IMG/VR virus record: IMGVR_UViG_3300045988_099717
Coordinates: 82,967 to 146,966 of that record
Origin: a virus
Reading direction: 5' to 3' (one strand)
Length of the DNA stretch: 64,000 nt
Shown: positions 9,409-30,175 of the stretch, in pieces
How the letters are laid out: every line of letters starts with the position of its first letter
Position numbering within the stretch: the first letter of the stretch is position 1
Translations under genes and position numbers: made by a program
The notes under the pieces: generated by a model
What the model saw: the letters and a program-made list of their open reading frames with translations, nothing else
Told to the model about the DNA's origin: nothing
Database searches by the model: none

Positions 9409-9939
9409 ATGAGAAGGAGATTTTTTAATGCTGCGGATAATTTTGTGGGAGGATGTTATAATAAGTTATCTAATGAAGATATAAAAAGGCTTGGAGGAAA
9501 AAGGCCTTATGTATGTCAGTTTAATAAAATTCATATACATATAGGACCTGTATTAAAAGATCATGATTCCGATGTTAGTTACATAATGTTTAATAGTAAT
9601 TGGAATTATGGTGGTTATGAATCTATGGTTTATCATCATAGCAATAATGGTATTTTTATATTAGGTGAAAACAAAATTGGTAATATAGAAGACCATATAC
9701 AAGATCTAACATATTGGTACGAATATGATCCGAGTCTTAATGAAAATTATTGTTATTTTTATTATGAGGCTAATAACAGCGGAAATGCTATCAAGTTGAA
9801 TGGTGAGTTTGGTAGTGCCAGTACTGTTTTCAACATTCCCAGCTTGGAAGTCACCACTCTTCGTGATGGCAGTTTGAGTTTTCCGGAGATTCATATAGAG
9901 GGAGTTTGGGATCCGTCATTGTATAAATCAGTTTTATAA
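9409..9939 (+). CDS. Hypothetical protein with N-terminal MRRRF motif
   Basis: ORF directly downstream of the giant ORF. The likely ATG is at 9409, preceded by AAGGAG; the ORF track begins at GTG 9400. The N-terminal MRRRF is shared with the ORFs at 28816 and 29438. Confidence 0.55.
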   Translation: MRRRFFNAADNFVGGCYNKLSNEDIKRLGGKRPYVCQFNKIHIHIGPVLKDHDSDVSYIMFNSNWNYGGYESMVYHHSNNGIFILGENKIGNIEDHIQDLTYWYEYDPSLNENYCYFYYEANNSGNAIKLNGEFGSASTVFNIPSLEVTTLRDGSLSFPEIHIEGVWDPSLYKSVL

Positions 9940-9965
9940 TTAACTTTGCAAAAAAGTTAATTATT

Positions 9966-12221
9966 ATGGGTGTCAAATGTCAGATAGAAAAGAAGGAAAA
10001 TAAAATAGAACGGGTTGAGGCTCCTAACGGTGAGCCTTCCGTTCTTTACGAAAGTGCCTTAAAATTATTAGGAAACAGCGAGCGAGCTCTTCAAGTATGG
10101 GCTAAGGCTTACACCTCTGATTTTTTGTCGTATTATGGTCATTGGAATAACCCGGCTCCAGGGGAGATGTTTAATACCGATCCTAATGGCGAACCTCTTT
10201 TAGAAGATGTGCTGTCGTATATGAAGCGTCAGGCTTATTTTTCCGATCCCTTAACGGCTCAGGATGTTAAGGATGTAAGAGATGTTATGATATCCAATTC
10301 CATATATAGCATACGATCTCTTATTAATAGAGTTAGAAGCTCTTTTTATGTGGATGGCAATCTTATCCTAAATGAAGAAAATCTAAGAAGATCCGGCTTG
10401 TATAATGAGACGGAAATAAGTAGGATATTAGATAATCCTTCTGTATTCAATGAGGTCAGCTCTTTTATGAGGCTATTATTAGACTATTCTAATAACGAAC
10501 ACGATCTTGGGAAAGAGTTTTACTTCACAACCGTAGAAAAACCATACGGTCCTGTTGTGTATAAAAAAGGCGTCTTCAATAAATTAGGAAAGAGAGCATC
10601 ATACAATCCGGCTGAAGTTTATGAGGCTATAAAAAATACAGTAGGAGGTATTAGTGTTGCTTCAGAGTTTGATGCTGCTTTCGGATCTTTATCTGATTCA
10701 TATCCGGAGTTAGTTGAAAGATATCAGTCGGATAAGAGTTTTGCCTTGTCGATGTTCAACGAATTTTCGAATATGAACATCGTTCCGGTTGTGGCTTTAG
10801 AAGATAATAATATCGTAGAAGGGAAGAGACGGTCATTATCAAAGTTGCAAGATTATGCTTATTACAGCCCTATTGGATCTGAGTCATTACGAGCTCGTAT
10901 ATCAGCCTTTCTAAATAGGGTTAATGCTGATACAGAAGAAGACCTTAGAAGTATGATATGGGACGTAGAAGAGGCTTGTGTGGGTCTTGGTATAGATATC
11001 GTAGGCGTGTCTAAGGCATATGACGGAACAGAAGAATCGCTGAATAAAATTGATAGCTTGATGTTGGATCTTGATATTTATGTAGCAAGGCGCAACGATG
11101 ATACTTATGCTCCTACTTTAGCTTCTGCTATTGATGACGTTCTTGGAGATAGCAGGGATCGCCGTGTTATGTTTTTGCCAGAGTATATGGATAATATGAA
11201 TATCGTTTATATGGAATCTGACATAGATCCGGTATCGGCATTTGAAAATCATTCTCTGCTTTATCTTGGTGGAAACCTATATCATAAGGTAGAAAGAGAT
11301 AATTTAGGTGATTTGTACGATATGGCTGCCGAGCTTGCCAAGCAGAGCCTAACTTATTTCCCACCTGGTATCTATCCTGAATATTGTTTTAAAGATGGTG
11401 TTTTAGATAAGCTCCGCGTGAAAAACGTAGATAGTAAGGCCCTTGCTGATTCTATTAAAAAATACGTCCTGTCTTATACCGATTCTCAGAATACGGAAGA
11501 GATGAATGCTACCAGATTGGCGTTTGGTCATCTTGTTATTCCTGAAAGTCCGTATGTTAATGAAGAACGGGAGTTTAGCCGATACATAAACAGAAAGCAG
11601 GACAAAGAGAATCCTTTACTCTTATTCGATTTATACCAATCTTATCTTGAAAATAAGCTTCATAATACGGAAGTGTATGAAGGGGCATACAAGTATCTTG
11701 ACTTTAAACCAGATTATTTGCTGGGTCTTACCGTTTCAGATCCGGATACGTTAAAACAAATTGAACTATCTTTGGCAGGTAATGATCGTGAACAGCTATT
11801 TGAGTATAGCATGAGCAGTACCGATCCTTCTTTTACAGATCTGTTCTATTTGGATTATTATGATATGTTATATGCCGGTTCTGATTTCTATCACGATCTT
11901 TTCACAAAGCATCCTAATCTCTTAAATGAGGTTCGGGATCATAACATAACTAAGCAGGATGGTAATGTTATCGTAGAAGGGTTGTATAATAATTTTATCA
12001 GAATAGGGAACACAGTGTTCACTAAAGTCGGCGAAAGTAGTTCCGGCTCTATCTACCAAAATCTAACAGGAACCGAATCGGAGGTGAAATACGATTCTAC
12101 TCAGAAGGCTAAGACGGTAGAAACCGATTATGCTCCATACCAAAACAGATCTGGCTTGACACAAGACATGACCATAAGCAAGTCTGAATTAGGTGATCTT
12201 AATAAATTAGAATGCAAATAA
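9966..12221 (+). CDS. Large hypothetical protein of 751 aa, possibly structural
   Basis: Long ORF in the same direction as the giant-gene block, followed by a strong intrinsic terminator. No motif recognised. Confidence 0.7.
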   Translation: MGVKCQIEKKENKIERVEAPNGEPSVLYESALKLLGNSERALQVWAKAYTSDFLSYYGHWNNPAPGEMFNTDPNGEPLLEDVLSYMKRQAYFSDPLTAQDVKDVRDVMISNSIYSIRSLINRVRSSFYVDGNLILNEENLRRSGLYNETEISRILDNPSVFNEVSSFMRLLLDYSNNEHDLGKEFYFTTVEKPYGPVVYKKGVFNKLGKRASYNPAEVYEAIKNTVGGISVASEFDAAFGSLSDSYPELVERYQSDKSFALSMFNEFSNMNIVPVVALEDNNIVEGKRRSLSKLQDYAYYSPIGSESLRARISAFLNRVNADTEEDLRSMIWDVEEACVGLGIDIVGVSKAYDGTEESLNKIDSLMLDLDIYVARRNDDTYAPTLASAIDDVLGDSRDRRVMFLPEYMDNMNIVYMESDIDPVSAFENHSLLYLGGNLYHKVERDNLGDLYDMAAELAKQSLTYFPPGIYPEYCFKDGVLDKLRVKNVDSKALADSIKKYVLSYTDSQNTEEMNATRLAFGHLVIPESPYVNEEREFSRYINRKQDKENPLLLFDLYQSYLENKLHNTEVYEGAYKYLDFKPDYLLGLTVSDPDTLKQIELSLAGNDREQLFEYSMSSTDPSFTDLFYLDYYDMLYAGSDFYHDLFTKHPNLLNEVRDHNITKQDGNVIVEGLYNNFIRIGNTVFTKVGESSSGSIYQNLTGTESEVKYDSTQKAKTVETDYAPYQNRSGLTQDMTISKSELGDLNKLECK

Positions 12222-12266
12222 TTTTTGTATATATATGATATAGTTTTTTCATAATCACAATTTGGG

Positions 12267-12298
12267 AAGTGAGGCTTGTGAAAGTCTCACTTTTCTTA
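12267..12298 (+). terminator. Intrinsic terminator after the 751-aa ORF
   Basis: 7-bp stem aagtgag/ctcactt with a 12-nt loop, followed by TTTTCTT. Confidence 0.55.
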
Positions 12299-12931
12299 TA
12301 TATGTGTATATATCAATAACATATAAGAAAAGTTAGATTTTCATTGTTTATGGATTATTTTTATTAAGTTTGCGATATTAGTTTCAGGAAGGGATTATAG
12401 AAAATAGGGAAAAGTAAGAACAGAACGCAACTAATAACGGTAGGAAATGAGAATCAGTACCATCAAACGTAATAACAGCATTCATCTTATGTATAAAAAC
12501 ATTATGAATGATTTAGGTCAATTAAGAACTGTAGTTTCAAAATCCTATATTTATAATCTGATACAAAATCAAACCGGATTAAGTATCAGAACTATATCCC
12601 ATGTCTTGAATCACACAAAAGAACAGGATACAGATTCTTTGTGAAAAGCATACATTTTCATACATTTGTGTGTTCTTTAGTTTTTAGATTTAAGTTTTTC
12701 ATGGTATTAGTTTAGATTAGTGTAGATCAGGGTTCGCAGTGATGCGGGCCCTGGTTTGATTTAAAAAGTATTAAAATATTTGCTATTTAAGATCCTGTTC
12801 CTATCTTTGTTTCAGAAACAATGAACAACGAGATCCCACCTCTGGTTGTTTGATGTTGAAAGATATTTTTGGCTCATTAGGGTTTGTCATAGTGGGATCT
12901 GACATTCTCTTTTGGGCCTATTTTTTTTATC

Positions 12932-13816
12932 ATGGATAAAGTTTCTGTTTTTGAAAGTTCGGATTTTGGAGAGCTTAGAATTATTGTAGATCCAAAAGGA
13001 GATGTTTGGTTTGTGGCGTCAGATGTGGCTAAATCTCTTGGATATATAAATGCTAAAGATGCGGTAAAAAGACATGTAGATGATGATGATTCTATGCTTT
13101 TGCAAGTATCTGATAATCAATGGGGCGTAAAACGATCTATATTGAAAACCAGATATATAGATAGTATAAGAATAATTAATGAATCTGGTTTATATTCTCT
13201 TATATTATCTTCAAAATTAGAGTCTGCTAAGAGATTTAAGAAATGGGTAACATCTGAGGTTCTTCCTTCTATTCGTAAAACAGGAGAATACAAAACAAGT
13301 TCAGGCGGCAAGGGAATTTTGGTTCCTGACTTTTCTAATCCAGCAGATGCGGCAAGGGCATGGGCTGATCAGTATGAAGCTGCTCAGAGAGCTATAGCTG
13401 AAAAGTCGCAGGCAGAGGCAGAGAAGCAACAAGCCTTGAAAACAATAGAAGAGCATAAACCTGATGTGGAATTTGCCGAGTCTTTTAGGAAAGTAGACCA
13501 TAATAATATGTGGTTGATTCGTGATATTGCTAAAAAGTTAGAACAGAATGGTGTTATTATCGCCGAAAAGAATCTTCGATCATTTCTTGAAGAAGCTAAG
13601 TTTATGTTTAGAAACGGTCTTGGAAAATGGGGACTATATAGCAATGTTGTAGCTAAAGGATATGGAGTATATAGGTCTTATTTTGTTGATAAATATTCTG
13701 GTGAAAGAGTTAATCAACAAACTATCTACATGACAGGATCTGGATACGAAGTGACCCTCAATGGCATAAAAGGAAAACTCAAAAATGTATTTTTAAAATA
13801 TGGTAAATTTGCTTGA
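12932..13816 (+). CDS. Bro-N domain antirepressor-like protein with a KilAC/ORF6C-like C-terminal domain
   Basis: The N-terminus FGELRIIVDPKGDVWFVASDVAKSLGYINAKDAVKRHVDDDD matches the Bro-N signature. The C-terminal half resembles phage antirepressor C-terminal domains. Confidence 0.75.
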   Translation: MDKVSVFESSDFGELRIIVDPKGDVWFVASDVAKSLGYINAKDAVKRHVDDDDSMLLQVSDNQWGVKRSILKTRYIDSIRIINESGLYSLILSSKLESAKRFKKWVTSEVLPSIRKTGEYKTSSGGKGILVPDFSNPADAARAWADQYEAAQRAIAEKSQAEAEKQQALKTIEEHKPDVEFAESFRKVDHNNMWLIRDIAKKLEQNGVIIAEKNLRSFLEEAKFMFRNGLGKWGLYSNVVAKGYGVYRSYFVDKYSGERVNQQTIYMTGSGYEVTLNGIKGKLKNVFLKYGKFA

Positions 13817-13826
13817 GTTTGTTTAC

Positions 13827-13870
13827 AGGTAGTGTTTTAAAAGAACAAAAAAACACTACCTATTTTTTTG
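13827..13870 (+). terminator. Strong intrinsic terminator after the Bro-N gene
   Basis: Perfect 12-bp stem aggtagtgtttt/aaaacactacct followed by ATTTTTTTG. Confidence 0.7.
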
Positions 13871-13995
13871 TTTCTGTCTTTTCTGAAAATACTTCTCTTC
13901 TATAGGAAATAAATACACCCATATTCCACCTTACAATCATGATCTTTGTTACGTGCTTCATGCACGTATGTTTAACAATTAAATACTATAAAATT

Positions 13996-15006
13996 ATGGG
14001 TGGTGATAAAATCGTCCTTTTAGATGGAGCCGGGGCTAACGGCGGTGGTGCAGCAGCTACCAACGGTCTTCTTTCAATGATTCCCGGCATGTTTGCTAAT
14101 TTGATAGGTGGTAATAAAATGGATCCTAATCTGGTGGCGGCTTTGATGAACGGTCGTAACAACCAGGACGGTTTCGGCGGGGCTAACGGTTGGTGGCTCT
14201 GGATAATTGTTTTGTTCTGGCTGTGGGGTGGACGCGGCTTCGGTAACGGTTTTGGAAATGGCGGTGATTGTTGTGCCAATGGTTTGCCGGCTCAGTTGAA
14301 TAACGATTACGGTCGTGAACTTTTGATGCAGGCAATTCAAGGTAATCGTAGCGCCATAGATCAGATTGCTTCTGCTTTGAACTGTTCTACTACTCAACTT
14401 CAGAACGCTATCTGCAACGTACAGGGTGCTATTGATAAAGTAGCTGGTCAGGTAGGTATGACTTCTCAGGCTGTTATCAACGCAGTTCAACAACAAGGTT
14501 GTGAAATAGGAAATCAAATCAGCTCTTGCTGCTGCAATCTGAGTTCGTTAATCAATCAAAGCACTTGCCAGACTCAGGGAATGATTACTCAGCAAGGTTT
14601 TGATAACCAGCTTCGAACGTTGGAACAAACCAATATCTTGCAGAACGGTCTCAACCAAGGTCTGGCTAACAATCGAGAGCAAGCTACAAGCCAATTCAAT
14701 ATCTTGTCTGCGAAACTTGACGCCCAAACCGTTATGATCAACGACAAATTCTGTCAGTTGGAAATGAGGGAGATGCAGAACACTATTGCTCAACTTCGTG
14801 AAGAAAAAGCGGCTTTGACAGCTTCGGCATTATCTCAGCAACAAACCCAGAATATCGTTGGTCAATTACGTCCGACGGCCGTTCCGGCCTACCCCTCTTG
14901 TTCTCCTTACCAGGCTTATACTTGGGGACAGGTATTCGGAGGAGGTTGCTGCAATAACGGATGTGGATGTAACAACGGATGTTGCAATAACAACGCTGCT
15001 GTCTGA
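13996..15006 (+). CDS. Gly/Asn/Cys-rich predicted membrane protein
   Basis: ORF with a Gly-rich N-terminus, a Trp-rich hydrophobic segment WWLWIIVLFWLWGG, a Q/N-rich middle and a C-terminus GGGCCNNGCGCNNGCCNN with several CC/CCC motifs. The track start at 13939 is an alternative; ATG 13996 is more plausible. Confidence 0.55.
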   Translation: MGGDKIVLLDGAGANGGGAAATNGLLSMIPGMFANLIGGNKMDPNLVAALMNGRNNQDGFGGANGWWLWIIVLFWLWGGRGFGNGFGNGGDCCANGLPAQLNNDYGRELLMQAIQGNRSAIDQIASALNCSTTQLQNAICNVQGAIDKVAGQVGMTSQAVINAVQQQGCEIGNQISSCCCNLSSLINQSTCQTQGMITQQGFDNQLRTLEQTNILQNGLNQGLANNREQATSQFNILSAKLDAQTVMINDKFCQLEMREMQNTIAQLREEKAALTASALSQQQTQNIVGQLRPTAVPAYPSCSPYQAYTWGQVFGGGCCNNGCGCNNGCCNNNAAV

Positions 15007-15029
15007 TTTTATTAAGAGAGGAGGCTAAT

Positions 15030-15443
15030 ATGGCTTGTGTTTCTAAAATAGGATCGTTGTATGAGATGGTTACGAAGAATGTTATTGTTAGTACGACAAA
15101 TACAGTCTTCGGTATTAACCCACGGGCTTGGATCGCCCTTCCGTGTGAGGGTCTTATCCTTCTTAAGATAAGGCAAGTAGTCCCCACAGCCGGAAGTGCT
15201 CTACCGGTACAGATTGCGGTCCCGGCAAACAGCACAGTTTCAACAGTAGGAGCCGACACCTGTTGCCCGGTTACGGGAGTGAATGTCGTGAACCCTATTA
15301 ACGTAGCTGTCACGGGTGCTGCTATGGTAAATGGCACAGAACGCCTTCTGTACTTCAATAAAGTTCGTGGCGTGTTAAGATTAATGGATTGTTGTGTTCC
15401 GACAACAACAGCCCAGGCATCTGAAGTTAAAGCAGGTAAATGA
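15030..15443 (+). CDS. Hypothetical protein
   Basis: 137-aa ORF followed by a perfect 10-bp-stem terminator. Confidence 0.5.
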   Translation: MACVSKIGSLYEMVTKNVIVSTTNTVFGINPRAWIALPCEGLILLKIRQVVPTAGSALPVQIAVPANSTVSTVGADTCCPVTGVNVVNPINVAVTGAAMVNGTERLLYFNKVRGVLRLMDCCVPTTTAQASEVKAGK

Positions 15444-15450
15444 TTTCAGT

Positions 15451-15480
15451 AGGGTGATGAAGATCATCACCCTATTTTCA
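15451..15480 (+). terminator. Intrinsic terminator
   Basis: Perfect 10-bp stem agggtgatga/tcatcaccct with a 3-nt loop, followed by ATTTTCA. Confidence 0.65.
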
Positions 15481-15493
15481 CCTAACTAATATT

Positions 15494-15988
15494 TTGATCA
15501 TGTTTTCAGATTTGAAGAAAGGGTTTCAGGTACATACCCTTGATACTAATACAGTACCTAAATACGAATTGGGAAAGGTAGTAGCCGTATCCGAACCCAG
15601 GTATCTTCCTCCTCAGCCAGGTCAGTATCAGGCGATGCAGACCCGCGTGGTGGATCTGACGGTAGAGCTCACTGGCGAAACCAAGACCTATACGGTCCCG
15701 GAATCCCAGAATGTGGCTAAGGCTATGGGCATAACATTATCTACCAGCATAGATCCGATTATGAACGAACTGAATGCTATAAAAAACACCAGTCAAGACA
15801 TAATAAACAGCGTAGATGCCCATCGTGCCAAGATAGAGGCTTGTGAATCTATATTAGAAGATATCAATCCGGCATTCAAGCAAACGAGAGAGCAGGATCG
15901 TAAAATAGCTGGTATAGAAAATAAGGTGAATGACCTTACTGATTCATTCGAAGATTTAAAGAAGTTAATTGTAGAACGTTTGAAATAA
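15494..15988 (+). CDS. Hypothetical protein
   Basis: 164-aa ORF. No motif recognised. Confidence 0.5.
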   Translation: MIMFSDLKKGFQVHTLDTNTVPKYELGKVVAVSEPRYLPPQPGQYQAMQTRVVDLTVELTGETKTYTVPESQNVAKAMGITLSTSIDPIMNELNAIKNTSQDIINSVDAHRAKIEACESILEDINPAFKQTREQDRKIAGIENKVNDLTDSFEDLKKLIVERLK

Positions 15989-15995
15989 GTATAAT

Positions 15996-16364
15996 ATGAT
16001 AGTATATGATTTAAATTCAGGACACAGAGAATATCCTGGATATGACGAGATAGAAGACAGACGAGGTGGAGGCAGAGGCAGAAGCCGGCGTTCTGATGGG
16101 ACGTACATGGGGTATGGTGGTGGTATTTACGACCATTACGGTATGCATGAGAAGATGAAAGAAATGGAAGAGCGCGAAAACGAGCTGGAAGAAAGGGAAA
16201 GAAGGCTCGAAGAGCGCGAACGTCGTCATGAAATGGAGGACCGGGAATACCGGAGGATGGGTTACGAATCCTACCCGACCGATTACTATGGAGACGACAG
16301 ATACTACGGTGACGGACCTCAGATGCGTAGAGGTCGCGGACGTGGCAGAGGTCGTTCTTATTGA
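15996..16364 (+). CDS. RG/RGG- and ER-repeat-rich low-complexity protein
   Basis: Contains GGGRGRSRRS, ERERRLEERERRHEMEDREYRR and RGRGRGRGRSY. It ends in TGA and is in frame with the next ORF across an open 31-codon linker. Confidence 0.5.
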   Translation: MIVYDLNSGHREYPGYDEIEDRRGGGRGRSRRSDGTYMGYGGGIYDHYGMHEKMKEMEERENELEERERRLEERERRHEMEDREYRRMGYESYPTDYYGDDRYYGDGPQMRRGRGRGRGRSY

Positions 16365-16457
16365 GGAGCAGACGCAGAGGATCCAGCTTATCAGAAATAT
16401 GTAGATACTTACGGCTACCATTTTTCTAATGCTCTCGCTGATGAGGCGGTAAAGAAG

Positions 16458-16751
16458 ATGGTCAACATCGATGGATCCAAGAGGATCTGGAAGCAGCCGG
16501 AAATAAAAGATATTTTTGAAAAGTGCGGAGCGAAGAAGCCGGATAAAGCGACATGGGGCGATGTCCAATATGTCTTTGCAATGTACTATTCGGATGGTTT
16601 TCCGAAGGTCTTCAAATGTGAGAACGAGTTGGTGAAAGCTACGTTAATGTATTTGGATGATCCGGATGCTCCCGAAGGAGTAGCCTTTATAAGATGGCTT
16701 GCCGTGCAAGATTACCTCGGCGAAAAAATAAACTGGAAGGATCTGACCTGA
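16458..16751 (+). CDS. Hypothetical protein
   Basis: 97-aa ORF ending in TGA, followed by 62 further open in-frame codons. Confidence 0.5.
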   Translation: MVNIDGSKRIWKQPEIKDIFEKCGAKKPDKATWGDVQYVFAMYYSDGFPKVFKCENELVKATLMYLDDPDAPEGVAFIRWLAVQDYLGEKINWKDLT

Positions 16752-16908
16752 GATCCAGATCCAGGTCCTTCCGGTGGTGCGGGAGCCATAGTAAAAAATA
16801 TGATTCCCGCATTCCCGTTTTTCCCGTTTGGAAAAAAAGGAATAAAAATATTATACCGGTCGGCGGGCAATAGAATACCCGTGGCCGGTTTGTTTCACAT
16901 AACTTTTT

Positions 16909-17091
16909 TTGGATATGAATATAGCACACGAATCTAAATCGAATAAAACCCCATTGTATTTAATAGGAGAGTTGATTGGCGTACCGAATACGGTTATGGA
17001 CTCAGCATTGCATGAACTGAAAGATAGAATAGACAAAGACCCTAAATATAAAGATGTTAAAAATTGGCTCGAATCTTTACCCAAGATCTGA
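16909..17091 (+). CDS. Small hypothetical protein
   Basis: 60-aa ORF followed by a terminator. Confidence 0.4.
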   Translation: MDMNIAHESKSNKTPLYLIGELIGVPNTVMDSALHELKDRIDKDPKYKDVKNWLESLPKI

Positions 17092-17113
17092 ACCTATTTT
17101 TTTTAATACCAGG

Positions 17114-17143
17114 CCCGATGCGATTTTAACGTATCGGGTTTTT
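17114..17143 (+). terminator. Intrinsic terminator
   Basis: 6-bp stem cccgat/atcggg with a 13-nt loop, followed by TTTTTATTTT. Confidence 0.6.
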
Positions 17144-17218
17144 ATTTTAATTCATATTGTTTTATTTTAAATCTAATTAATTCATGAATGTCGTACTTTT
17201 GTTGAAAAAGTATTCTAT

Positions 17219-17446
17219 ATGGAAAATAAGGAAGATTACGTTGGTTACGAAGATCAAGAACTGTGTAACCTGTATTACAAAGAGGCTGAAGCCATGAGGC
17301 AAAAGCAGGACTGGTCTCGGCTTAGGGCTGTCCCTGCTCCGGCCAAGGGAACGCCATCGCCAGGCTGGGGTCAGCTTGGACGTGGAAATGATGTCCGTGT
17401 TAAGTACGTTAGCATCAATTCAGGATTAGGAGGGGACAGATTATGA
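17219..17446 (+). CDS. Small hypothetical protein
   Basis: 75-aa ORF whose stop overlaps the next start (ATGA). Confidence 0.4.
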   Translation: MENKEDYVGYEDQELCNLYYKEAEAMRQKQDWSRLRAVPAPAKGTPSPGWGQLGRGNDVRVKYVSINSGLGGDRL

Positions 17447-17658
17447 CTGTAGAAGAATTGGCTAATAAAAGATACAGTGGCGAATTTGTTTTCATGCTTG
17501 GTCATTTGGAAGGTATAACAAGATTCGTTTTTGAATGTTTTGATCCCAGACCTGATCACGAAGGTAAAAATACTTATATGGTTTCCTATTTTGATAAGGG
17601 ACTTCGTAGAAGAGATGTGGTAGATGTGCCATGTTATATGAATGTTTTAGCAAAATAA
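17443..17658 (+). CDS. Small hypothetical protein
   Basis: 71-aa ORF translationally coupled to the upstream ORF. Confidence 0.45.
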   Translation: MTVEELANKRYSGEFVFMLGHLEGITRFVFECFDPRPDHEGKNTYMVSYFDKGLRRRDVVDVPCYMNVLAK

Positions 17659-17678
17659 ATTAAAATATTGTAAATATC

Positions 17679-18314: not shown

Positions 18315-18337
18315 TAACAATTAATTTAAAACAAATC

Positions 18338-19473: not shown

Positions 19474-19476
19474 ATT

Positions 19477-21125: not shown

Positions 21126-21185
21126 AGATGAGATGAAATTGATATACGGAATAAAGATCAGTATTCTGAAAGAAATGTTTATCAT

Positions 21186-21503: not shown

Positions 21504-21643
21504 AAAAGTTGATATTCGTTTAGGCAGAGGTCTGGCGAATCAGATTAAGATAAACAAAACCATCCCAGTGTCTCATAAACCAAAAGAAGAACGTCGAATG
21601 ATGTTTGTTTGTGGTGATGATATTGCTTCTATTATAAAGCGGT

Positions 21644-22036: not shown

Positions 22037-22089
22037 GCTGAACTTGACGATTTTTCGTCAGATTATAATTTTTTTTTCATATTATTTTT

Positions 22090-22127
22090 AAGCCATCAGA
22101 CTGAGAAGTTAGATGGCTTTATTTTCT
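22090..22127 (+). terminator. Terminator-like hairpin upstream of the 2140-aa gene
   Basis: 8-bp stem aagccatc/gatggctt with a 14-nt loop, followed by TATTTTCT. Confidence 0.5.
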
Positions 22128-22148
22128 ATGATATGCTTGATTTTTAAC

Positions 22149-22156
22149 TACCTTTG
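22149..22156 (+). promoter_or_regulatory. Candidate Bacteroidota-type -7 promoter box (TAnnTTTG) for the giant ORF
   Basis: TACCTTTG lies 24 nt upstream of the ATG at 22180. The assignment rests on the motif alone. Confidence 0.3.
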
Positions 22157-22179
22157 TCTCATAACAAAAATGTTTTACT

Positions 22180-25100
22180 ATGACATCAACGTGTATTATT
22201 AAAAGAGATAATAAAAAGAAAGTTGTTTCTGTCTCTACCAGATCAGGGGACAGGTCTATGTTGTTTGATAAAATAGCATCTGTTCCCCTTATGGAGAATA
22301 GGGAACGGGCTACTACTGTTTTTAAAACCGTATTTTCTAATAAGTTCTTAAAGGCTTTTGGCGACTGGAGAAAGAGAGTGCCTATCAACAAACAGGCTTA
22401 TAATAAGGTAAAATCCAACATCGATCTTATCCCAGAAGCCTATATAGAAAGGGTGCTGGATAAGGCTTCTAAGATGAGTAACCCTGTTCTTGTGTCAAAA
22501 TCAGATGCACCTTATGGGATTCAAGAATCGGGCTTTGGATTCTACAGCCAAGATCTGGGTGATAATATTATGTTGGTGGATGCTATGGTTCCGTCAAGTA
22601 TTTCCGTACCGGAAGGACCGGGAATAGACGCCGGGCAGTATCTACAAGATGCTATATCTTCGGACTTCACTCCCGTATCTATGGTACAGGATAAGGGTGT
22701 TAATTATATGGTTATAAAAGACGGTCTTAAGATATTTAGCCCAGAAGAGCTACCAGAAACAGATTCTAATCCTGTGGGTGTAACGTATCAGACCGGAGAG
22801 CCTCGTTTGTTTTTCATGAACGATCGTAGTCAATTATTTGAAGATTACGAAGAAGCTCTTCGCTCTGGCGGGAATGATATTAGAATAGGATTCTTATCCG
22901 GCACCGTTCAAGAATCTACCGTGGATGGCGTGGCAGACATTACTTACAAGGCTGGAAAGTATATTCTTAATAATCCCAAGTCTTTTATACCGGTCATGAC
23001 CGCTTCTGCTTCTACTTCTTTATCAACAAAAGGCGGGATAATTAACTACCTTATAAAGAAAGGTCTTTTGTCAGGATCTAAGATATTCGATTCGGAAACA
23101 AGAAGCTATTATCTTACAGGAGAAGGACATACAGGACAAATTAGACTTTTCAATTCAGCATTATCCTACACCGAGCTCCGTAATCATTTTGGTTCCGATG
23201 TTTCCATGAACGACCAAGGTATGATAACCATAAGCTCGTTGGATAATAGTAAGGTAACTATGAGGCTCGCTACCGGAGGAACGGAAAGGGTTAGCAAAGA
23301 GCAGATAAAGAACGATCTTAAGTCAGGAAGATACAATGAATTGGACGCCAAGTACGATCATTTTGATGCGCTTGTAGTTTCATTCATATTAGAAGACAAC
23401 GATCTTTATGCTGATACTAAAGCTAAGATCGTATCAGATTATAGCAGGCAGGAACGTGATCAACGAAATTCTATTGTCGAGATACTGAAAACTCTTGGCG
23501 TTAGTGTCATAGGTATGACCGACTATATAGAGAAGTACCAAACCAAATACGGGCATGAACCTTCTGCTAAGGCATTGGCGGATATTGCCAATAACGTAAT
23601 AGCAGTTGGTGAAGATGCTACTTTATCTGATTTAGTAGAAGAAACAGCCCACTTCCTTGTAGAGGCATACAGAGATCAGAATGCTGTTGAGGCTGTTCTG
23701 CAAGATGTAGAAGGTACGGAAGAGTGGAACCAGTATGCAGGTCAGTATTATAATACATACGGTAAGGTATATGAAGGAGCTGAGCTTGATAATGCTGTTA
23801 GGAGAGAAATTTTTGGAAAGATCCTCGCCAGGGAGATGCAGACCGGCACAGCACAGGCGCCGGTAGAGCCCACCTCCTTCCTGGGGCGCGTCCGGCAGCT
23901 TCTCTCTGGAATCGTAAGCTGGCTTAAATCAGCTTTATCAACCCAAAGACAAGATTTGAATAACGTTATTAAAAGCATTCGTGATCTTGCCATTACTGAC
24001 ATAGATAAAGGATTTGACACCTCTCTGTTAAAGGATAATGACTTTACATTATACTCCCTTTCTTCTATGAACAAGAACAAGTTTCTTGAGTCTAAGATCC
24101 GGGCATTGAGAAAAACCTTAAGAGACTTGCGTCAGATAAGCTCTGATAGGGCTGTAACTACGTCTATGACCCTTGCTCAGCTTAAGACTATAGAAGATAA
24201 GATAAATAAGGTAGAGACCGAAATAGACAAGAATGAGATGGCGGCTGCCATGAATAGCATGATCTCTACAGCCGAAGCTCAGGTCAGATACTTAAGCAAT
24301 GTGGTGAACACCATCCTTCATGGTGATACCAAAGATGGTAAGCTTCACTTCAATACCAATGATCGAAAGAACGTAGATATTATCAACAATCAGGTTCTTC
24401 CGATCATGAACGATCTTCGAGGATATATCCGTAACAGAAGTACCGAATTTGATGAACGTGAAAAGCAGGATTATACAAATAGGATTAATACCGTCATTGC
24501 CGACATTAATGGTATTCAGTCTGATATTAAATCAGTACAAGACCTTGATGAAAGCACGTTGCTTGATAAGTTAATGAACGAACTTCATGTGCCGGCAGAT
24601 AAGGTAAAGAGAGTAAAAGAATTTTTTGACAAAGTTCAACATGATGTCTCTTGGATAAGTAGGTGGTTCGGTATATTAGAGCATTCTTCCAGTCCGTTCA
24701 ATAACGCTCTTGGAGCTATGATTGCCAAAGACAATTACAATGCGATGGTGAATGCTCAGCCCGCCATATCCGACTTCCTGGCATATGCTAAAAAGCATGG
24801 TTTTAACAAATATGAATTTGAAAAACTGCTTCAGAAAGTAGATGGCAAAACTTCTAATTACCTTCGCAGTGCTCTTGATATGGCTAAATACGATCGTAAT
24901 AAGAAACTGGCACAGATGCGTGCGTTTGCGGCTGCCATGAACATAGAAATATCAGAAGAAGAAATCAATGATGTGGTTGACAATAATCGTAATTACGTAT
25001 TTAAAAGAGAAGTAGTTGACAAGGACGGAAATACGGTTACTGAAAACGCTAAATTTAAGCCCTCATCTGACAGGGTTAATACCGATATTTTTACCATCGA

Positions 25101-28100
25101 GCAGGAAAAGATCTATACGGAGCAGATGGAAAAGTGGGATGCTGAAAATTCAGAATTGGAATTTAGTGAAAGTTACGCCACAAGAATGGAATCCATATAC
25201 AAAAAGGCTGAAGAAGAATTAGGACATCCGGTTTCTCAAACAACCAAAGAATACCTTAATGCCTTATCCCGGCAAAAACGGATATTGAGGCAGCCTTTTA
25301 TTGATAGCGGTGGTAATTTTGATGAGGTTGCCTACTATAAGAGTAGTAACTACGAAGAAGAAGGACTGCTTCGTAAACAACGTAAGGAAGCAGCTTCGGA
25401 ATACATATATGTAGGGACCAGACGTGTTGAAAAAACCGGCGACCAACTTAAGATGGCCAAAGAAATACAAGCCATAAATGAAGTTTGGAGAAAAGAATCA
25501 AATAATGCCACTAATTCCGTATCAGAATCGTTTTTGCAAAAATTAAGAACGATTCAGAACGAGTCAGGAGGAGAAGCTGCGTTGAAGGCACTTATGTTGG
25601 GAGGTCACCTGTCATTTAATGATCGGTTTTGGAATGATGTAGAATCGGAACAGTCGGCACGTACCGAATCAAATAACAAGGCTTCGTATCTTAAAATGGC
25701 GCATGATATCATTAGTTCTACGACAAGTGATAGAGATGCGACTGACGTGGACTCGATTGTAAAAGATATAGAAAAAAATAAGGCCATTATCAAGGAAATA
25801 ATCGGAAACAATCGCGATGTGGCTGATATCGGAGAAATTAACGAAGCGACATTTACCTCATCTGAAAGAGATGCTTTTAGGGCCGCATCTGAAGCTATTG
25901 AAGCCGATTACGCTATCTTAATAGATTATGCTAAGATGGTGGGTCTTGAAGATATTGATAAGTACCTTACTAAAAGCAGTAAGGCTGAAAACGAAGTAAA
26001 TCAGTCTTATTTAAATGCTCTTGCTGACTCCAAGGAAGTGGAATGGAAGTTCGTACAACGTCATACTACGGCGAAGAAAGCAAAAAGGATTCAGGCTTTA
26101 AGGGATAAGCTGTTTAAGGCTGCTGATAACCGATATCTGTTTACCGTATCTGAAACCAACTACCTGTCAGAAAAGCTTGGTATAAGCAAAGAATTAGACG
26201 GTAGAGATTTCAGGAATGCTGTTAATGCTAAGATGGCCAGCTTATTTTTAAATAATACAAGAGAAGAGGGTATAGAAGAAGCTAATGCTATTGTTAATGA
26301 ATTTGCCAGGAGCCAGGTTTTTTCGTACTATAAACGCATGGCGCCTACCGGATATGCGGCCATGATCGACAAAATCGGTCGAGGTGAGATAGATGTGGCG
26401 CAGATGGTTAAGGACGTACAAAACGGTACATCCACCCAAGATTATGGCATGGACATATCGTACCTTTCTTTCGACCCTGCAAGGGCATGGGTGGCTGAAT
26501 CTGAAGCCGAAAATAGCGGCCGTAATCCTGATTATGTAAAAGATCATGGGTATGGTCATCGCATGCCTAAGAAAAGCCTGTATCGTGACGAATCGTATTT
26601 CAATGACTTTGGTATCAAGTATGATGCTGACGGTAATGAAGTTGCTACTAAAAACGTAGATCAGTGGAATATGATTCAAAAACTCAAGGAAATAAAAAGA
26701 CAATCACTTGATCTATACAAAGAGCAGAGCCCGAACCTGTATGCTATTCCACAGATATCAAAACAAGATATAGAACGTATAGAAGGATTGGGTATTAACT
26801 TCAAAAATACGGTTCGTAATTTTGTATCAGATCTGTGCCTGGACAGAGTAGACGATTCTTTATACGGTAAAACCAGACAAGGGGAAGTATATGATCCGGA
26901 AGACAGACTTAGGTCTATACCCAAATACTACATATATGAATTGGAGAACCAAGATGATGTATCTCACGATTTTGGCTACTCTTATTCTATGCTTATGATG
27001 CAGTCATCGTTATATAACGAAAAGCAGAAGTCTATAGAGCTTGCCCAAGGACTGGAGCAGATGTTACTGAATAAACAATTTGAAGGCGGTAAGAAGGCTG
27101 AAGCAACCCAAGCGTATCAGATGTTCAGGGACTTCTTCAACGATCATTATTATGGCATTAGGATGAACACCAAAAAACTTACGGTGAACATCGGAGGATA
27201 TACGGTAGACCTTACAAGAATTATGATGGCTGTTGAAAGATTTATGTCGGTCATGAACTTGGCACTGTCTCCGTTTGTGGCAGCTACCGGCGCCCTGACA
27301 GGTCATATCAACCTCATCATGGAATCTGCCGTAGGACAGTATATAAGCAAAGACTCCCTTAAATACGCATCGGCTGAATTTTCACGCCTTGCTCCATCTT
27401 GTATAGCAGAAACCGGAGACATAGATAGGAAAAGCAAATTATATGTCATAGGTGAGAGAATGGGGATATTCAATATCCGAAATCGTATGTATGGTGCCGG
27501 ATACAATAGAGTGGCCAGGACCTTAATGCGTTCACCTATGTATGCTTTTATGGAAATCCTGAACTACCCTCTTGATCCGCAGGTTATGATTGCTACTATG
27601 GACAATGTTCGTTATTACAAAGGCCGGTTCTACACGTTCCAAGATTTCAAGATGGAAAAAGAACGCAATAAAGAACAGAGTACCATAAAAAGAGAATGGA
27701 ATGCATTAAAAGATCGTACTTTATGGAGTATGGTAGATGTCGTGGATGGGAAGGTGGTTGTAAAGCCCGGATCAGGTGTTACTGTTGAGGAAGTTGAAAC
27801 CCAGATGGCTATAACCAGGAATCAAGTCCGTAGCTTGTCGCAGATATGTAACGGATCTTTGAATGAAGAAAATCGAACTGCCGCATCGCGCAACTGGATA
27901 GCCAGGTTCATGACCGCCCACCGAGGATGGTTGGTGCTGGCGGCTCAACGCCTGTGGAAAAGACGTGGCTTCAATTTCCAAACAATGCAAGAAGAGGAAG
28001 GGTTGTCAATTACGTTAAAGAATATGATAGCCAAAACATTTAGCTTAGCTTCCGAGTCTGGTATGAAAAACATCATAGATGCCTGGAACGAAAATAAAGA

Positions 28101-28602
28101 TAATATGAATGAGGTAGAGAAAACCAATATAAAACGCCTCAGTGTCTATGCCGGCACGTTCCTTATCATGCAAGCCGTATCCATGCTTCTTGCCGGATGG
28201 CGTGATGATGATGAAAACGAAGAAAGTTGGCTTACTCAATTTGGATCCTATGTCGGATTCAGAACCATAAACGAAATAGCTTCACAGATGCCGTTTATTA
28301 TGGAGCTTAACGTTGTAGATATCATTAACGACCCGTTTGTCATGGGGCGGAAGTTGAAGGATCTTACTGATCTTAGGAATTACTCACTTGATAAAGTAAC
28401 ATCCGGCACATACAAAGGAGAGTTTAAGTTATTTAGGCAACTCGCCAGACAGACGTTTATCAAACAATGGTATAACATCAAGACGCCGGAAGACATAGCG
28501 CGCGCCTATAATTGGTGGCAGCAGACAAACAACAAGTCAATGATGTTCTTCATCGGCGCCACTCCTGATTCGGAAGGAGACGATGATGTTAGTTACAAAT
28601 AG
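22180..28602 (+). CDS. Giant protein of 2140 aa, function unknown (virion or injected protein, or tape-measure-like candidate)
   Basis: Uninterrupted 6.4-kb ORF with long helical, coiled-coil-like stretches and hydrophobic segments near the C-terminus. No catalytic motif recognised. Confidence 0.75.
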   Translation: MTSTCIIKRDNKKKVVSVSTRSGDRSMLFDKIASVPLMENRERATTVFKTVFSNKFLKAFGDWRKRVPINKQAYNKVKSNIDLIPEAYIERVLDKASKMSNPVLVSKSDAPYGIQESGFGFYSQDLGDNIMLVDAMVPSSISVPEGPGIDAGQYLQDAISSDFTPVSMVQDKGVNYMVIKDGLKIFSPEELPETDSNPVGVTYQTGEPRLFFMNDRSQLFEDYEEALRSGGNDIRIGFLSGTVQESTVDGVADITYKAGKYILNNPKSFIPVMTASASTSLSTKGGIINYLIKKGLLSGSKIFDSETRSYYLTGEGHTGQIRLFNSALSYTELRNHFGSDVSMNDQGMITISSLDNSKVTMRLATGGTERVSKEQIKNDLKSGRYNELDAKYDHFDALVVSFILEDNDLYADTKAKIVSDYSRQERDQRNSIVEILKTLGVSVIGMTDYIEKYQTKYGHEPSAKALADIANNVIAVGEDATLSDLVEETAHFLVEAYRDQNAVEAVLQDVEGTEEWNQYAGQYYNTYGKVYEGAELDNAVRREIFGKILAREMQTGTAQAPVEPTSFLGRVRQLLSGIVSWLKSALSTQRQDLNNVIKSIRDLAITDIDKGFDTSLLKDNDFTLYSLSSMNKNKFLESKIRALRKTLRDLRQISSDRAVTTSMTLAQLKTIEDKINKVETEIDKNEMAAAMNSMISTAEAQVRYLSNVVNTILHGDTKDGKLHFNTNDRKNVDIINNQVLPIMNDLRGYIRNRSTEFDEREKQDYTNRINTVIADINGIQSDIKSVQDLDESTLLDKLMNELHVPADKVKRVKEFFDKVQHDVSWISRWFGILEHSSSPFNNALGAMIAKDNYNAMVNAQPAISDFLAYAKKHGFNKYEFEKLLQKVDGKTSNYLRSALDMAKYDRNKKLAQMRAFAAAMNIEISEEEINDVVDNNRNYVFKREVVDKDGNTVTENAKFKPSSDRVNTDIFTIEQEKIYTEQMEKWDAENSELEFSESYATRMESIYKKAEEELGHPVSQTTKEYLNALSRQKRILRQPFIDSGGNFDEVAYYKSSNYEEEGLLRKQRKEAASEYIYVGTRRVEKTGDQLKMAKEIQAINEVWRKESNNATNSVSESFLQKLRTIQNESGGEAALKALMLGGHLSFNDRFWNDVESEQSARTESNNKASYLKMAHDIISSTTSDRDATDVDSIVKDIEKNKAIIKEIIGNNRDVADIGEINEATFTSSERDAFRAASEAIEADYAILIDYAKMVGLEDIDKYLTKSSKAENEVNQSYLNALADSKEVEWKFVQRHTTAKKAKRIQALRDKLFKAADNRYLFTVSETNYLSEKLGISKELDGRDFRNAVNAKMASLFLNNTREEGIEEANAIVNEFARSQVFSYYKRMAPTGYAAMIDKIGRGEIDVAQMVKDVQNGTSTQDYGMDISYLSFDPARAWVAESEAENSGRNPDYVKDHGYGHRMPKKSLYRDESYFNDFGIKYDADGNEVATKNVDQWNMIQKLKEIKRQSLDLYKEQSPNLYAIPQISKQDIERIEGLGINFKNTVRNFVSDLCLDRVDDSLYGKTRQGEVYDPEDRLRSIPKYYIYELENQDDVSHDFGYSYSMLMMQSSLYNEKQKSIELAQGLEQMLLNKQFEGGKKAEATQAYQMFRDFFNDHYYGIRMNTKKLTVNIGGYTVDLTRIMMAVERFMSVMNLALSPFVAATGALTGHINLIMESAVGQYISKDSLKYASAEFSRLAPSCIAETGDIDRKSKLYVIGERMGIFNIRNRMYGAGYNRVARTLMRSPMYAFMEILNYPLDPQVMIATMDNVRYYKGRFYTFQDFKMEKERNKEQSTIKREWNALKDRTLWSMVDVVDGKVVVKPGSGVTVEEVETQMAITRNQVRSLSQICNGSLNEENRTAASRNWIARFMTAHRGWLVLAAQRLWKRRGFNFQTMQEEEGLSITLKNMIAKTFSLASESGMKNIIDAWNENKDNMNEVEKTNIKRLSVYAGTFLIMQAVSMLLAGWRDDDENEESWLTQFGSYVGFRTINEIASQMPFIMELNVVDIINDPFVMGRKLKDLTDLRNYSLDKVTSGTYKGEFKLFRQLARQTFIKQWYNIKTPEDIARAYNWWQQTNNKSMMFFIGATPDSEGDDDVSYK

Positions 28603-28815
28603 ACGAAGAATATCGGACTTGCATTGTTTTTGTATGATTCCAATATGTTATATTAGCATCGTCAAAGAGTAGATTGTACGTTTTTTGTTCTTACTTGAAA
28701 GATTATGTAGGTTAATTTTTTTCTGAAATTGTTTTCTTACCGGTTCTCAGTCAGAGATGATAGGGAACCGGTTTCTTTTATGTTGTCAATTATTGCTATC
28801 TTGCAAACAAAAATC

Positions 28816-29433
28816 ATGAGACGAAGATTTCAAATAGGGATGGGGGTAAATCCCTCGCTTATAATCAATAAAGGCATATACATCCGACATGTAGATGGAG
28901 GATTATATACAAAAGAAAATTGGTCTAATAAAGGATATTCCAATGATCTATGCAATGGAATAGCTCTTGTAGATAAAGTGTGTTTTGTTATAGCCACTGA
29001 ATATATTGGCACATTTAGTTGGGGTAAGAATGGAAGAGTAGACAATGTATTTGCACAAAATAGTTCTTATATGGAGACCGTTAAAAAGGATTATTGGGGG
29101 CGTGAAAATCAGAATGCGTATCTTGAATATGATACCAGTAATGAAAATTACGCTTTTAATAAAGCTAATAGCTATTTATTTAAAAATGGTCAAAATGGAT
29201 ATGTAGGTGGCGCCGGAGAGTTTTTTTTGATATCATTGTATGCGAATGAAATAAACGAATGCCTTTTAATGGTAGGAGGTACGATAATGAGTAATAAAAT
29301 GTGGACATCCACTCAATCTACACAATTTACCTATTCGTGGTATTATGATATAAACATCCAAGGAGATCATTTGGATACAAGTACAAGGAGTAATCCACGT
29401 TATGTCCGCCCCTTTACCGAATTAATTTTATGA
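28816..29433 (+). CDS. DUF1566-like (Lcl C-terminal domain-like) protein starting MRRRF
   Basis: The internal ATG at 28816 gives MRRRFQIGM. The C-terminus ...MWTSTQ...W...RYVRPFTEL resembles the DUF1566 signature as I remember it. The track ORF begins at 28729. Confidence 0.45.
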   Translation: MRRRFQIGMGVNPSLIINKGIYIRHVDGGLYTKENWSNKGYSNDLCNGIALVDKVCFVIATEYIGTFSWGKNGRVDNVFAQNSSYMETVKKDYWGRENQNAYLEYDTSNENYAFNKANSYLFKNGQNGYVGGAGEFFLISLYANEINECLLMVGGTIMSNKMWTSTQSTQFTYSWYYDINIQGDHLDTSTRSNPRYVRPFTELIL

Positions 29434-29437
29434 AATT

Positions 29438-30175
29438 ATGAGAAGAAGATTTGAAAATAATGCTAAACTATATGAGTATAAGATAGTTAGCGATTGTATA
29501 GGGGGGGGGGTAATCGTAGAAGGAAAGAAAGTAGGCACCATTCCACAGGGCGGGCAATTTATCTTTCTGTCTAAAAAAGAACGGCTGGATTCCATAAGTG
29601 TCCAAGGCGGTGTTCCAATGGAAGATAGGCAAGAGATCGATAGTCAGGTTGATACGACAGAGGAATTGCTTGAACAGGATTCGGTGGTTCTTGCTATTGC
29701 TTTAACAACCTCTCCTTATTATGGATTTAGAGTAAGTGTGATAGCACCTGATGAGTTTACGCTAAGAACAACCAATAGGATTAATAGAACCTTTTTAATA
29801 ACAAGCTTTACTCCACCTGCTGCTATATACGGTGTAAACTTTGGTGATCCTATTGTCCTTAATTATGATAGTTACCAATATGAGATGCCAGATCTTGTAA
29901 TTGATGGACCTCATGATAGAATAGTTAGGGCAGATCCTAATCTTACTTGGGTTGTAAGATGTACAGACGCCGACTTTAAACCTTTGCCATATCCAGAATC
30001 ATGGTCTGGCCAAGGTTTAAATTCTATGTTCTTATCAGATATGAAACGTCTTGCTCCTGGTGATCATCATGTATCATATACAGCTTATATTAATTTGGAC
30101 TTGATAAATGATGGCGGAAGTAAAGTTCATACTGAATATCTGATATTAGAAAAAACACTTAATTTTACGATATGA
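29438..30175 (+). CDS. Hypothetical protein starting MRRRF and containing a G10 tract (tail fibre or receptor-binding candidate)
   Basis: 245-aa ORF with a G10 homopolymer at 29501-29510 inside the coding sequence. It is the last + strand gene before the strand switch. Confidence 0.55.
   Translation: MRRRFENNAKLYEYKIVSDCIGGGVIVEGKKVGTIPQGGQFIFLSKKERLDSISVQGGVPMEDRQEIDSQVDTTEELLEQDSVVLAIALTTSPYYGFRVSVIAPDEFTLRTTNRINRTFLITSFTPPAAIYGVNFGDPIVLNYDSYQYEMPDLVIDGPHDRIVRADPNLTWVVRCTDADFKPLPYPESWSGQGLNSMFLSDMKRLAPGDHHVSYTAYINLDLINDGGSKVHTEYLILEKTLNFTI

Follow-up and report, generated by a model that had tools for sequence, protein, structure and literature searches.

The N-Terminal Peptide MRRR[F/Y] of Epsilon crAss-like Phages: A Candidate Address Tag for Exchangeable Accessory Proteins of the Structural Operon

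Introduction

In a 64,000-nucleotide (nt) stretch of viral DNA (positions 82,967 to 146,966 of the IMG/VR virus record IMGVR_UViG_3300045988_099717; hereafter the window, whose first letter is position 1), three open reading frames (ORFs) with otherwise dissimilar products, here termed ORF1, ORF2 and ORF3, open with the same five residues, M-R-R-R-F. Sequence comparison with related genomes supports MRRR[F/Y] as a selected feature at the protein level. With moderate confidence, amounting to about an even chance, the peptide is proposed to act as an N-terminal address tag for accessory virion adhesins, which would in addition be subject to phase variation.

The window shares 93% identity over 84% of 21.5 kb with crAssE-Sib (OR575929, 151 kb), an epsilon crAss-like phage of the human gut that was classified and described by Babkin et al. 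2024 (PMC11054128). This close nucleotide identity, together with synteny, places the window among the epsilon crAss-like phages (proposed Epsilonunovirus).

Tagged Starts in the Window

The three ATGs lie on the plus strand at 9409, 28816 and 29438, and a six-frame scan of the whole 64-kb window found no other start of the form M-[RK]3-[FYW]. Given the residue frequencies in the 67 ORFs that reach 100 amino acids (aa) or more, only 0.0008 such starts would be expected (Poisson P(>=3) ~8e-11). Similarly, the 15-nt tag pattern with up to two mismatches occurs three times, always at the tagged starts, against 0.56 expected occurrences. ORF1 (176 aa, MRRRFFNAADNF...; 9409..9939) encodes the tag as ATG AGA AGG AGA TTT (9409..9423), ORF2 (205 aa, MRRRFQIGMGVNPS...; 28816..29433) as ATG AGA CGA AGA TTT (28816..28830), and ORF3 (245 aa, MRRRFENNAKLYEYK...; 29438..30175) as ATG AGA AGA AGA TTT (29438..29452), where codon 5 is TAT or TAC (Tyr) in relatives; all three genes are on the plus strand. 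The bodies behind the tag are mutually dissimilar by BLASTP. The view of a first-pass annotation of this DNA, that three otherwise dissimilar ORFs share MRRRF for reasons other than chance, is thus borne out.

The same annotation had each of the three ORFs directly following a giant gene, which holds for ORF1 alone (stop of the giant ORF at 9404-9406, ATG at 9409). ORF2 begins 213 nt past the 2140-aa ORF, beyond a hairpin and a U-run, and ORF3 comes after ORF2 and not after a giant gene. The association with giant ORFs holds only in part; related genomes have four further tagged genes just upstream of the giant muzzle gene, adjacent to ring-protein genes.

Several observations indicate that the three ATGs are the true starts. 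That of ORF3 is the first possible start, four codons past a stop. Upstream of ORF2 there is an in-frame TTG at 28729, but a frame opened there would cross the hairpin as well as an A5/A6 indel (the minority length occurs in 12 of 71 genomes); as the indel would break this frame, the ATG at 28816 is taken as the true start. In addition, the same peptide stands at the first ATG of many other genes that have different upstream sequences.

Selection on the Peptide

Across genes, the three arginines are encoded by differing codon sets (AGA AGA AGA; AGA CGA AGA; AGA AGG AGA; AGG CGT CGT; CGT AGA CGT), and TTT, TTC, TAT and TAC are all used for the Phe or Tyr at codon 5. Among approximately 250 related starts, polymorphism in the RRR codons is synonymous, start-codon mutants number only two, and codon 5 of intact starts specifies Phe or Tyr, with Leu in some glycine-rich copies of slot A (described below). 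Upstream sequences are unrelated between tagged genes. A conserved translation-initiation context, which had been offered as one explanation of the shared start, is not supported by these data, because the arginine codons vary (AGA/AGG/CGA/CGT) behind unrelated upstream sequences and the peptide stays constant. What had been described as conservation of the surrounding nucleotides is confined to the five tag codons, and even these differ synonymously (AGG, CGA).

The tag also extends to distant homologues. An exhaustive HMMER search with ORF2 yielded 679 relatives, among which P0203 (MRRRF) and P0218 (MRRRY), two stand-alone homologues of its lectin-like domain from other phage contigs, keep the tag at 39% identity; the expectation that the motif is N-terminal and retained in homologues was accordingly confirmed. 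Three other stand-alone ORF2 relatives start with MS[SA]FRRRLM. P0203 adjoins CrAss_Ring_1, CrAss_Ring_2 and the same protease-like gene that accompanies slot A, and its downstream neighbour starts with MCRRFYFN. Because the codons differ, the polymorphism is synonymous, and both distant homologues and swapped cassettes retain the tag, the data support selection on it as a peptide.

Cassette Exchange Behind the Tag

The survey of relatives covered 239 IMG/VR loci for body families and 80 further metagenome loci for the strand count. Tagged ORFs in the 239 loci fall into five body families, and a total of ten body families not linked by BLAST was reached, with up to seven M(S)RRR[F/Y/L] genes per genome and with MSRRRY, MRRRL and MCRRF as variants besides M-R-R-R-[F/Y]. 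The tagged genes sit in the structural operon: four precede the muzzle gene, one follows the 2213-aa gene and two follow the 2140-aa gene. Of 124 tagged ORFs in the metagenome loci, 123 lie on the strand of this operon. Structural genes that this phage expresses at a high level open differently.

Within these positions, the bodies are exchanged as cassettes. The genes of crAssE-Sib that are syntenic with ORF1, ORF2 and ORF3 start with MRRRY, MRRRF and MRRRF, respectively, and the first and third bodies are unrelated to those of the window. Slot B, the cassette between the 2213-aa gene and the virion RNA polymerase gene, holds ORF1 in the window and an unrelated 192-aa MRRRY protein in crAssE-Sib; slot C2 holds ORF3 in the window and an unrelated 149-aa MRRRFEN protein in crAssE-Sib. 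In slot B, the two genomes are identical through ATGAGAAGGAGAT, which marks the left cassette junction, and then cannot be aligned up to a short spacer before the RNA polymerase gene. In slot C2, identity extends through MRRRFEN and is followed by unalignable sequence up to the next intergenic region.

A third site, slot A, is situated beyond the window, bordered by the genes for ring proteins and the membrane protease on one side and by the giant muzzle gene on the other, and contains up to four more tagged genes in tandem. Their products start with MSRRRY, with MRRRF or MRRRL (carrying Gly_rich_2), with MRRRFENVNM and with MRRRFEFDNN, and one contig has a 772-aa MRRRF protein in this slot. 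Bodies of one type can occupy different slots: an Lcl_C-like body follows the protease gene in locus L244 and the 2140-aa gene in the window. Furthermore, P0063 is a natural hybrid whose N-terminal half resembles the slot-C2 cassette of crAssE-Sib (MRRRF...PVFAVSISAP...) and whose C-terminal half is that of the ORF2 lectin-like domain, which indicates that recombination occurs inside cassettes and not just at their edges.

Two further observations concern slot A. The gene immediately upstream of the slot-A tagged genes (L282 5001-5462; L244 9549-10004; L241 12289-12750) always encodes a membrane protein of 153 aa that has several passes and an HExxH motif (phrog_15610, 'protease') and that is kept in the divergent L244 lineage at 64% identity. 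In crAssE-Sib, the MRRRFENVNM gene has only 32 codons and is followed by a TnpB (IS605-type) gene (L241 14017-15413, corresponding to crAssE-Sib 64017-65413); relatives without the TnpB insertion possess a full 169-aa MRRRFENVNM gene and a fourth tagged gene. It thus appears that an insertion sequence has broken up part of this array in crAssE-Sib or taken its place.

Variable Homopolymer Runs Near the Tag

Each of the three tagged genes in the window contains a homopolymer run shortly behind the tag. In ORF1, this is a T6 run in codons 5-6 (9421..9426, plus strand), where T5 or T7 puts the body out of frame and T7 yields MRRRFF-stop. ORF2 has a G5 run in codons 9-11 (28842..28846, plus strand), whose G4, G6 and G9 forms shift the frame and whose G8 form adds an in-frame Gly. 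ORF3 has a G10 run in codons 22-25 (29501..29510, plus strand), the only G or C run of at least 7 nt in the window. Among relatives, the ORF1 run varies in 7 of 78 loci (T6 in 71, T7 in 5, T5 in 2), the ORF2 run in 18 of 78 (G5 in 60, G6 in 10, G8 in 4, G9 in 3, G4 in 1) and the ORF3 run in 15 of 29 (G10 in 14, G9 in 11, G8 in 3, G6 in 1). In de-duplicated contexts, the out-of-frame share is ~11% for ORF1, 23% for ORF2 and 67% for ORF3. With G9, the body of ORF3 is in frame with a TTG at 29494, from which an untagged 'MYRGG...' protein is called.

As a control, approximately 118 runs of at least 5 nt in the same 12-kb loci were compared. The three runs behind the tags are the only coding ones among them with frequent indels; the other variable runs are intergenic or differ in no more than two loci. 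The glycine-rich tagged gene has a poly-G run of variable length (G6-G12) located 18 nt upstream of its ATG, within a tiny upstream ORF, and public protein sets contain many frameshifted forms of tagged proteins. The pattern, known from differences between assemblies, is that expected of simple-sequence contingency loci, which mediate phase variation.

Intergenic runs at window positions 28681, 28809, 12921, 13847 and 13863 also vary strongly in length among relatives. At 28681, T6 and T7 occur 48 and 27 times, and at 28809, just before the ORF2 ATG, A5 and A6 forms are split 59 to 12. They could belong to promoter spacers or leader regions, where they would contribute further expression switching.

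Domains of the Tagged Proteins

The AlphaFold model of ORF2 (pLDDT, predicted local distance difference test, 93.2), built on 91 diverse homologues, has an unstructured, low-confidence segment from residue 1 to ~17 and a globular body spanning residues 20-205; a shallow alignment of close relatives gave a pLDDT of 33. In Foldseek searches of the PDB, this fold matched a Bacteroides fimbrial protein (4eps, E = 3e-4), the C-terminal domain of Legionella Lcl (8q4e, probability 1.00) and C-type-lectin-like domains. Against BFVD, the matches were tail fibre and DUF1566 proteins, including those of the crAss-like phages cr116_1 and cr10_1 (TMq 0.80-0.85, E down to 2e-15). ORF2 itself has no Pfam match even at E = 10, and 16 of its 91 homologues match Lcl_C (PF07603) at E <= 0.01 (best 2e-5). 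On the strength of the model, the body behind the disordered leader can confidently be assigned to the DUF1566/Lcl_C type of C-type-lectin-like domain, a type found at tail-fibre tips. It shares its fold with the DUF1566/Lcl_C domains that terminate phage tail fibres and bacterial adhesins (8q4e, 4eps), but differs from them in falling below the Pfam threshold and in being a stand-alone domain with an MRRRF leader instead of the C-terminus of a fibre. Elsewhere, the ORF2-type domain is found at the C-terminal end of very long proteins. A tblastn search of GenBank phages with ORF2 returned only crAssE-Sib and weak crAss-like matches.

In other phages, the same lectin-like domain is mostly preceded by N-terminal modules of the form MKYLRKFxTEAE...PNVxL, and in some cases by MS[SA]FRRRLM or MK[FY]LD.HG (e.g., P0204, P0206 and P0212). 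Adjacent, different genes on one contig share the same N-terminal module (L247, L252 and L254). The pattern MK[YH]L[RK]KF occurs at 600 or more places in IMG/VR, only nine of which are lectin relatives; an IMG/VR search with P0203 yielded no locus.

Neither Pfam nor PHROGs contains a family for ORF1, ORF2 or ORF3, and relatives of ORF1 and ORF3 are confined to this phage clade. Within one phage species, the ORF3 family is remarkably diverse. It has 225 matches; most of the 120 listed form singleton 90%-identity clusters, with 78-96% identity to the query, which hints at diversifying selection or frequent recombination. With regard to tagged proteins outside the window, the glycine-rich protein matches Gly_rich_2 and the PHROGs annotations 'minor tail protein' and 'tail fiber assembly', the 772-aa protein contains three copies of DUF5977 together with BACON domains, and the MRRRFEFDNN protein has a sub-threshold Lcl_C match; several further tagged bodies have no detectable family. 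In the recognisable tagged proteins, the domain starts ~16-22 residues after the Met, which defines a common architecture of tag, short leader and domain. Judged from sequence matches and the ORF2 model, these domains support the assignment of the tagged products as putative virion-surface proteins that would need a common attachment or recognition element.

Genomic Neighbourhood

ORF1 is flanked on its 5' side by the giant 2213-aa virion structural gene (2765..9406, plus strand; phrog_32390) and on its 3' side by a 751-aa gene (9966..12221, plus strand), the crAssE-Sib counterpart of which was named DNA-dependent (virion) RNA polymerase by Babkin et al. (PMC11054128). The second giant gene encodes a 2140-aa virion structural protein (22180..28602, plus strand; phrog_37651) that is homologous to a virion structural protein of the Cellulophaga phages phi17:2 and phi4:1. 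The giant-gene block is syntenic with that of the Cellulophaga Lightbulbvirus phages, yet MRRRF genes are absent from those phages despite the shared block. A sequence search of the PDB with both giant proteins gave no match. By analogy, given the synteny with crAss001 and the Cellulophaga Lightbulbvirus phages, the giant proteins may be internal, ejected cargo instead of fibres.

The window contains an intact 2140-aa ORF. Its counterpart in crAssE-Sib (L001 21462-27864) is recorded as two overlapping coding sequences of 281 and 1885 aa, and tblastn aligns the ORF to crAssE-Sib in two pieces; this reflects either a frameshift in crAssE-Sib or a sequencing or annotation artefact.

Between the 2140-aa gene and ORF2, a stable RNA hairpin at 28739..28772 (plus strand) is followed by the U-run UUUCUUUU. 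Direct folding gave -19.6 kcal/mol (z = -4.1), and a consensus terminator scan did not report the hairpin. Hairpin and U-run are terminator-like and suggest that ORF2 and ORF3 are transcribed as a unit of their own; this argues for separate expression of ORF2 and against the upstream in-frame TTG as its start.

Proposed Mechanism and Alternative Explanations

According to the proposed mechanism, M-R-R-R-[F/Y] would serve epsilon crAss-like phages as a protein-level address tag, placed in front of a flexible leader of ~15-20 residues. Tag and leader would be carried, irrespective of family, by small accessory proteins of the structural operon, several of them carbohydrate-binding, and most likely all of these interchangeable modules would be recognised through the tag by one common acceptor. 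This acceptor would probably be a docking site on the virion, such as the tail hub/collar, the muzzle or a neighbouring giant protein; alternatively, an assembly factor that loads tagged proteins could fill the role. New adhesin bodies would be swapped in behind the constant tag, and slippage at T6, G5, G10 or the upstream poly-G would, in some of the genomes, put the body out of register with the tagged start. The result would be ON/OFF, or possibly tagged/untagged, switching of each module and a heterogeneous virion surface. The parts of this scheme that we infer are physical docking and the nature of the acceptor, as well as the occurrence of tagged proteins in virions and the reversibility of switching. 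The first-pass annotation had already suggested an attachment or recognition peptide; what stands of this suggestion is a selected peptide-level feature on unrelated, swapped bodies with domains of virion-surface type.

A more specific version is put forward only tentatively and is rather doubtful as a whole. In it, a single acceptor on the crassvirus particle would read fMet-Arg-Arg-Arg-Phe/Tyr, and the run behind this label would switch up to seven adhesin modules independently between tagged (virion-bound) and untagged or absent states. If so, a clonal population would display a combinatorial mixture of adhesins on top of a main receptor-binding protein diversified by a diversity-generating retroelement (DGR), and the peptide would constitute a minimal portable display tag for loading chosen proteins onto crAss-like particles.

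Several points weigh against the address-tag proposal. Presence in virions and binding through the tag are so far predictions. With only five conserved residues, the tag is very short for a docking element; known anchors are longer, with 26 residues in crAss001 gp22 and whole domains in T7-like or CBA120-like systems. ORF1 and ORF3 are without a recognisable fold, a structure having been predicted for ORF2 only. Slots B and C belong to a gene block whose crAss001 equivalent specifies internal, ejected cargo and which here includes the virion RNA polymerase gene, so that position among such cargo-type genes does not by itself favour an external location. The run-length differences were obtained from assembled contigs and could in part stem from errors in assembling or sequencing runs of G8-G10 or, instead of reversible switching, from repeated loss of the genes. 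A possible Rosetta-stone link to the giant proteins was dropped, as P0192 and P0193, giant proteins that end in an ORF2-type domain, are not homologous to the giant proteins of the window.

Other explanations of the shared start have to be considered. It might be kept as a short stretch of homology for cassette exchange, a module boundary and not a functional peptide. The left junctions fall exactly at the tag, after ATGAGAAGGAGAT in slot B and after MRRRFEN in slot C2, related Lcl_C-like bodies occur in different slots (L244 and the window), and the P0063 hybrid joins two families, all of which such a recombination handle would explain. However, tag nucleotides differ among slots by up to 5 of the 12 Arg-codon positions with the peptide unchanged, RRR-codon polymorphism is synonymous only, 12-15 nt is short for homologous exchange, and survival of none but the recombinants that keep the tag would likewise place the junction there; this explanation is regarded as unlikely. 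Alternatively, the tag could direct proteins into the capsid or tail lumen as packaged and ejected cargo, by analogy with phage T4. The T4 internal proteins IPI, IPII, IPIII and Alt, which are hypervariable and otherwise unrelated, carry a capsid-targeting sequence of ~10 residues that brings them into the head as cargo and is removed by the prohead protease. As in T4, unrelated proteins from hyperplastic, cassette-like loci have a short N-terminal peptide in common; moreover, slots B and C are surrounded by genes whose syntenic equivalents in crassviruses encode cargo and virion RNA polymerase, and the N-terminus of the crAss001 cargo protein gp45 (MAKKKIKRRGK) is also very basic. Unlike the T4 case, the recognisable tagged bodies are of adhesin or tail type (lectin-like, BACON, glycine-rich 'minor tail protein'), four tagged genes are located between the ring-protein and muzzle genes, and no protease-cleavage motif was seen after the tag, so a packaging signal is considered improbable.

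A further alternative is that the first codons or residues tune initiation, early elongation or stability instead of mediating a protein contact. The background to this idea is an A/G-rich start in a Bacteroidota host poor in Shine-Dalgarno sequences, rare Arg codons and N-terminal stability rules. Most copies do have purine-rich AGA/AGG codons right behind the ATG, several tagged genes begin a few nucleotides past the preceding stop, where coupled translation is possible, and the phage encodes a tRNA-Arg with anticodon CCT. On the other hand, the CGT/CGA versions encode the same peptide, the aromatic residue 5 is conserved as an amino acid (TTT, TTC, TAT, TAC), upstream contexts are unrelated, and highly expressed structural genes of the same phage start otherwise; the probability assigned to an expression-level role is therefore low. 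A link to the phage tRNA-Arg was rejected, since its anticodon CCT reads AGG, whereas the dominant AGA codon requires UCU. An export signal of the twin-arginine translocation (Tat) or Sec type, lastly, is barely credible. MRRRF fits R-R-x-F, and R-R-R-F(-L-I-K) of the glycine-rich copy resembles the Tat consensus S/T-R-R-x-F-L-K, but the missing hydrophobic region (h-region) effectively refutes such a signal: the best 12-residue Kyte-Doolittle means range from -0.06 to 1.9, the stretches concerned mostly contain polar or charged residues, and the leader in the ORF2 model passes straight into the globular domain.

Relation to Known Systems and Significance

The nearest structural precedent comes from the same virus order: the tail fibre gp22 of crAss001 is held in the THA2/THB tail hub by its residues 1-26 (Bayfield et al. 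2023, PMC10172136). Like gp22 and other modular phage receptor-binding proteins, the tagged proteins combine a conserved N-terminal element with exchangeable C-terminal domains, in several cases of putative binding or tail type, and one such element is found on several proteins per genome, encoded in the tail module of a crAss-like phage. Whereas such anchors are folded or extended and run to tens of residues, conservation here is restricted to the 4-5 residues of M-R-R-R-[FY] at the head of a disordered leader of ~17 residues, and no folded anchor domain is present. In addition, crAss001 gp22 starts with MFFTQEDYRK, which has no similarity to the tag, and the tagged proteins are mostly small (150-250 aa) single-domain modules that number up to seven per genome and whose docking is predicted.

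With respect to switching, hypermutable poly-G tracts are reported in receptor-binding genes of Campylobacter phages (Sorensen et al. 2021, Cell Rep 35:109214, given among the references of PMC10877375). In both cases, homopolymers in genes assigned, here putatively, to host recognition vary in length and switch the reading frame. In the epsilon crAss-like phages, however, the runs (T6, G5, G10 and the upstream G6-G12) closely follow or precede the tag that several small, mutually unrelated genes have in common, and the proposed switching is deduced from differences between assemblies of a Bacteroidota-associated phage. Both the combination of a shared N-terminal anchor with variable binding domains and the poly-G switching of phage receptor-binding genes are thus known principles; what is new is that a tag of five residues heads ten unrelated bodies and that, in four of the genes, it is directly followed or closely preceded by a slippage run. 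In the literature searched, no description was found of the motif in phages or of homopolymer switching or phase variation in crAss-like phages, and the tagged genes are labelled hypothetical in the crAssE-Sib paper (PMC11054128). That phage also encodes, outside the region of the window, a complete DGR (L240 45751-47816) whose target is a separate tail-fibre gene (PMC11054128), so the lineage unites DGR mutagenesis, cassette swapping and homopolymer variation.

Human guts commonly harbour epsilon crAss-like phages, and the ways in which crassviruses vary their contacts with host and mucus are poorly understood. Should the tag prove to be an attachment label, a class of unannotated 'hypothetical' genes would become exchangeable virion adhesins, and the breaking of cassette swaps exactly at codon 5 would be explained. 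The 5' homopolymers would then form a second, slippage-based layer of diversification beside the DGR; among phages, descriptions of this mechanism have to date come from those of Campylobacter. The motif itself provides a simple handle for annotation and for studies of host range and persistence, and possibly for the display of foreign domains on crAss-like particles.

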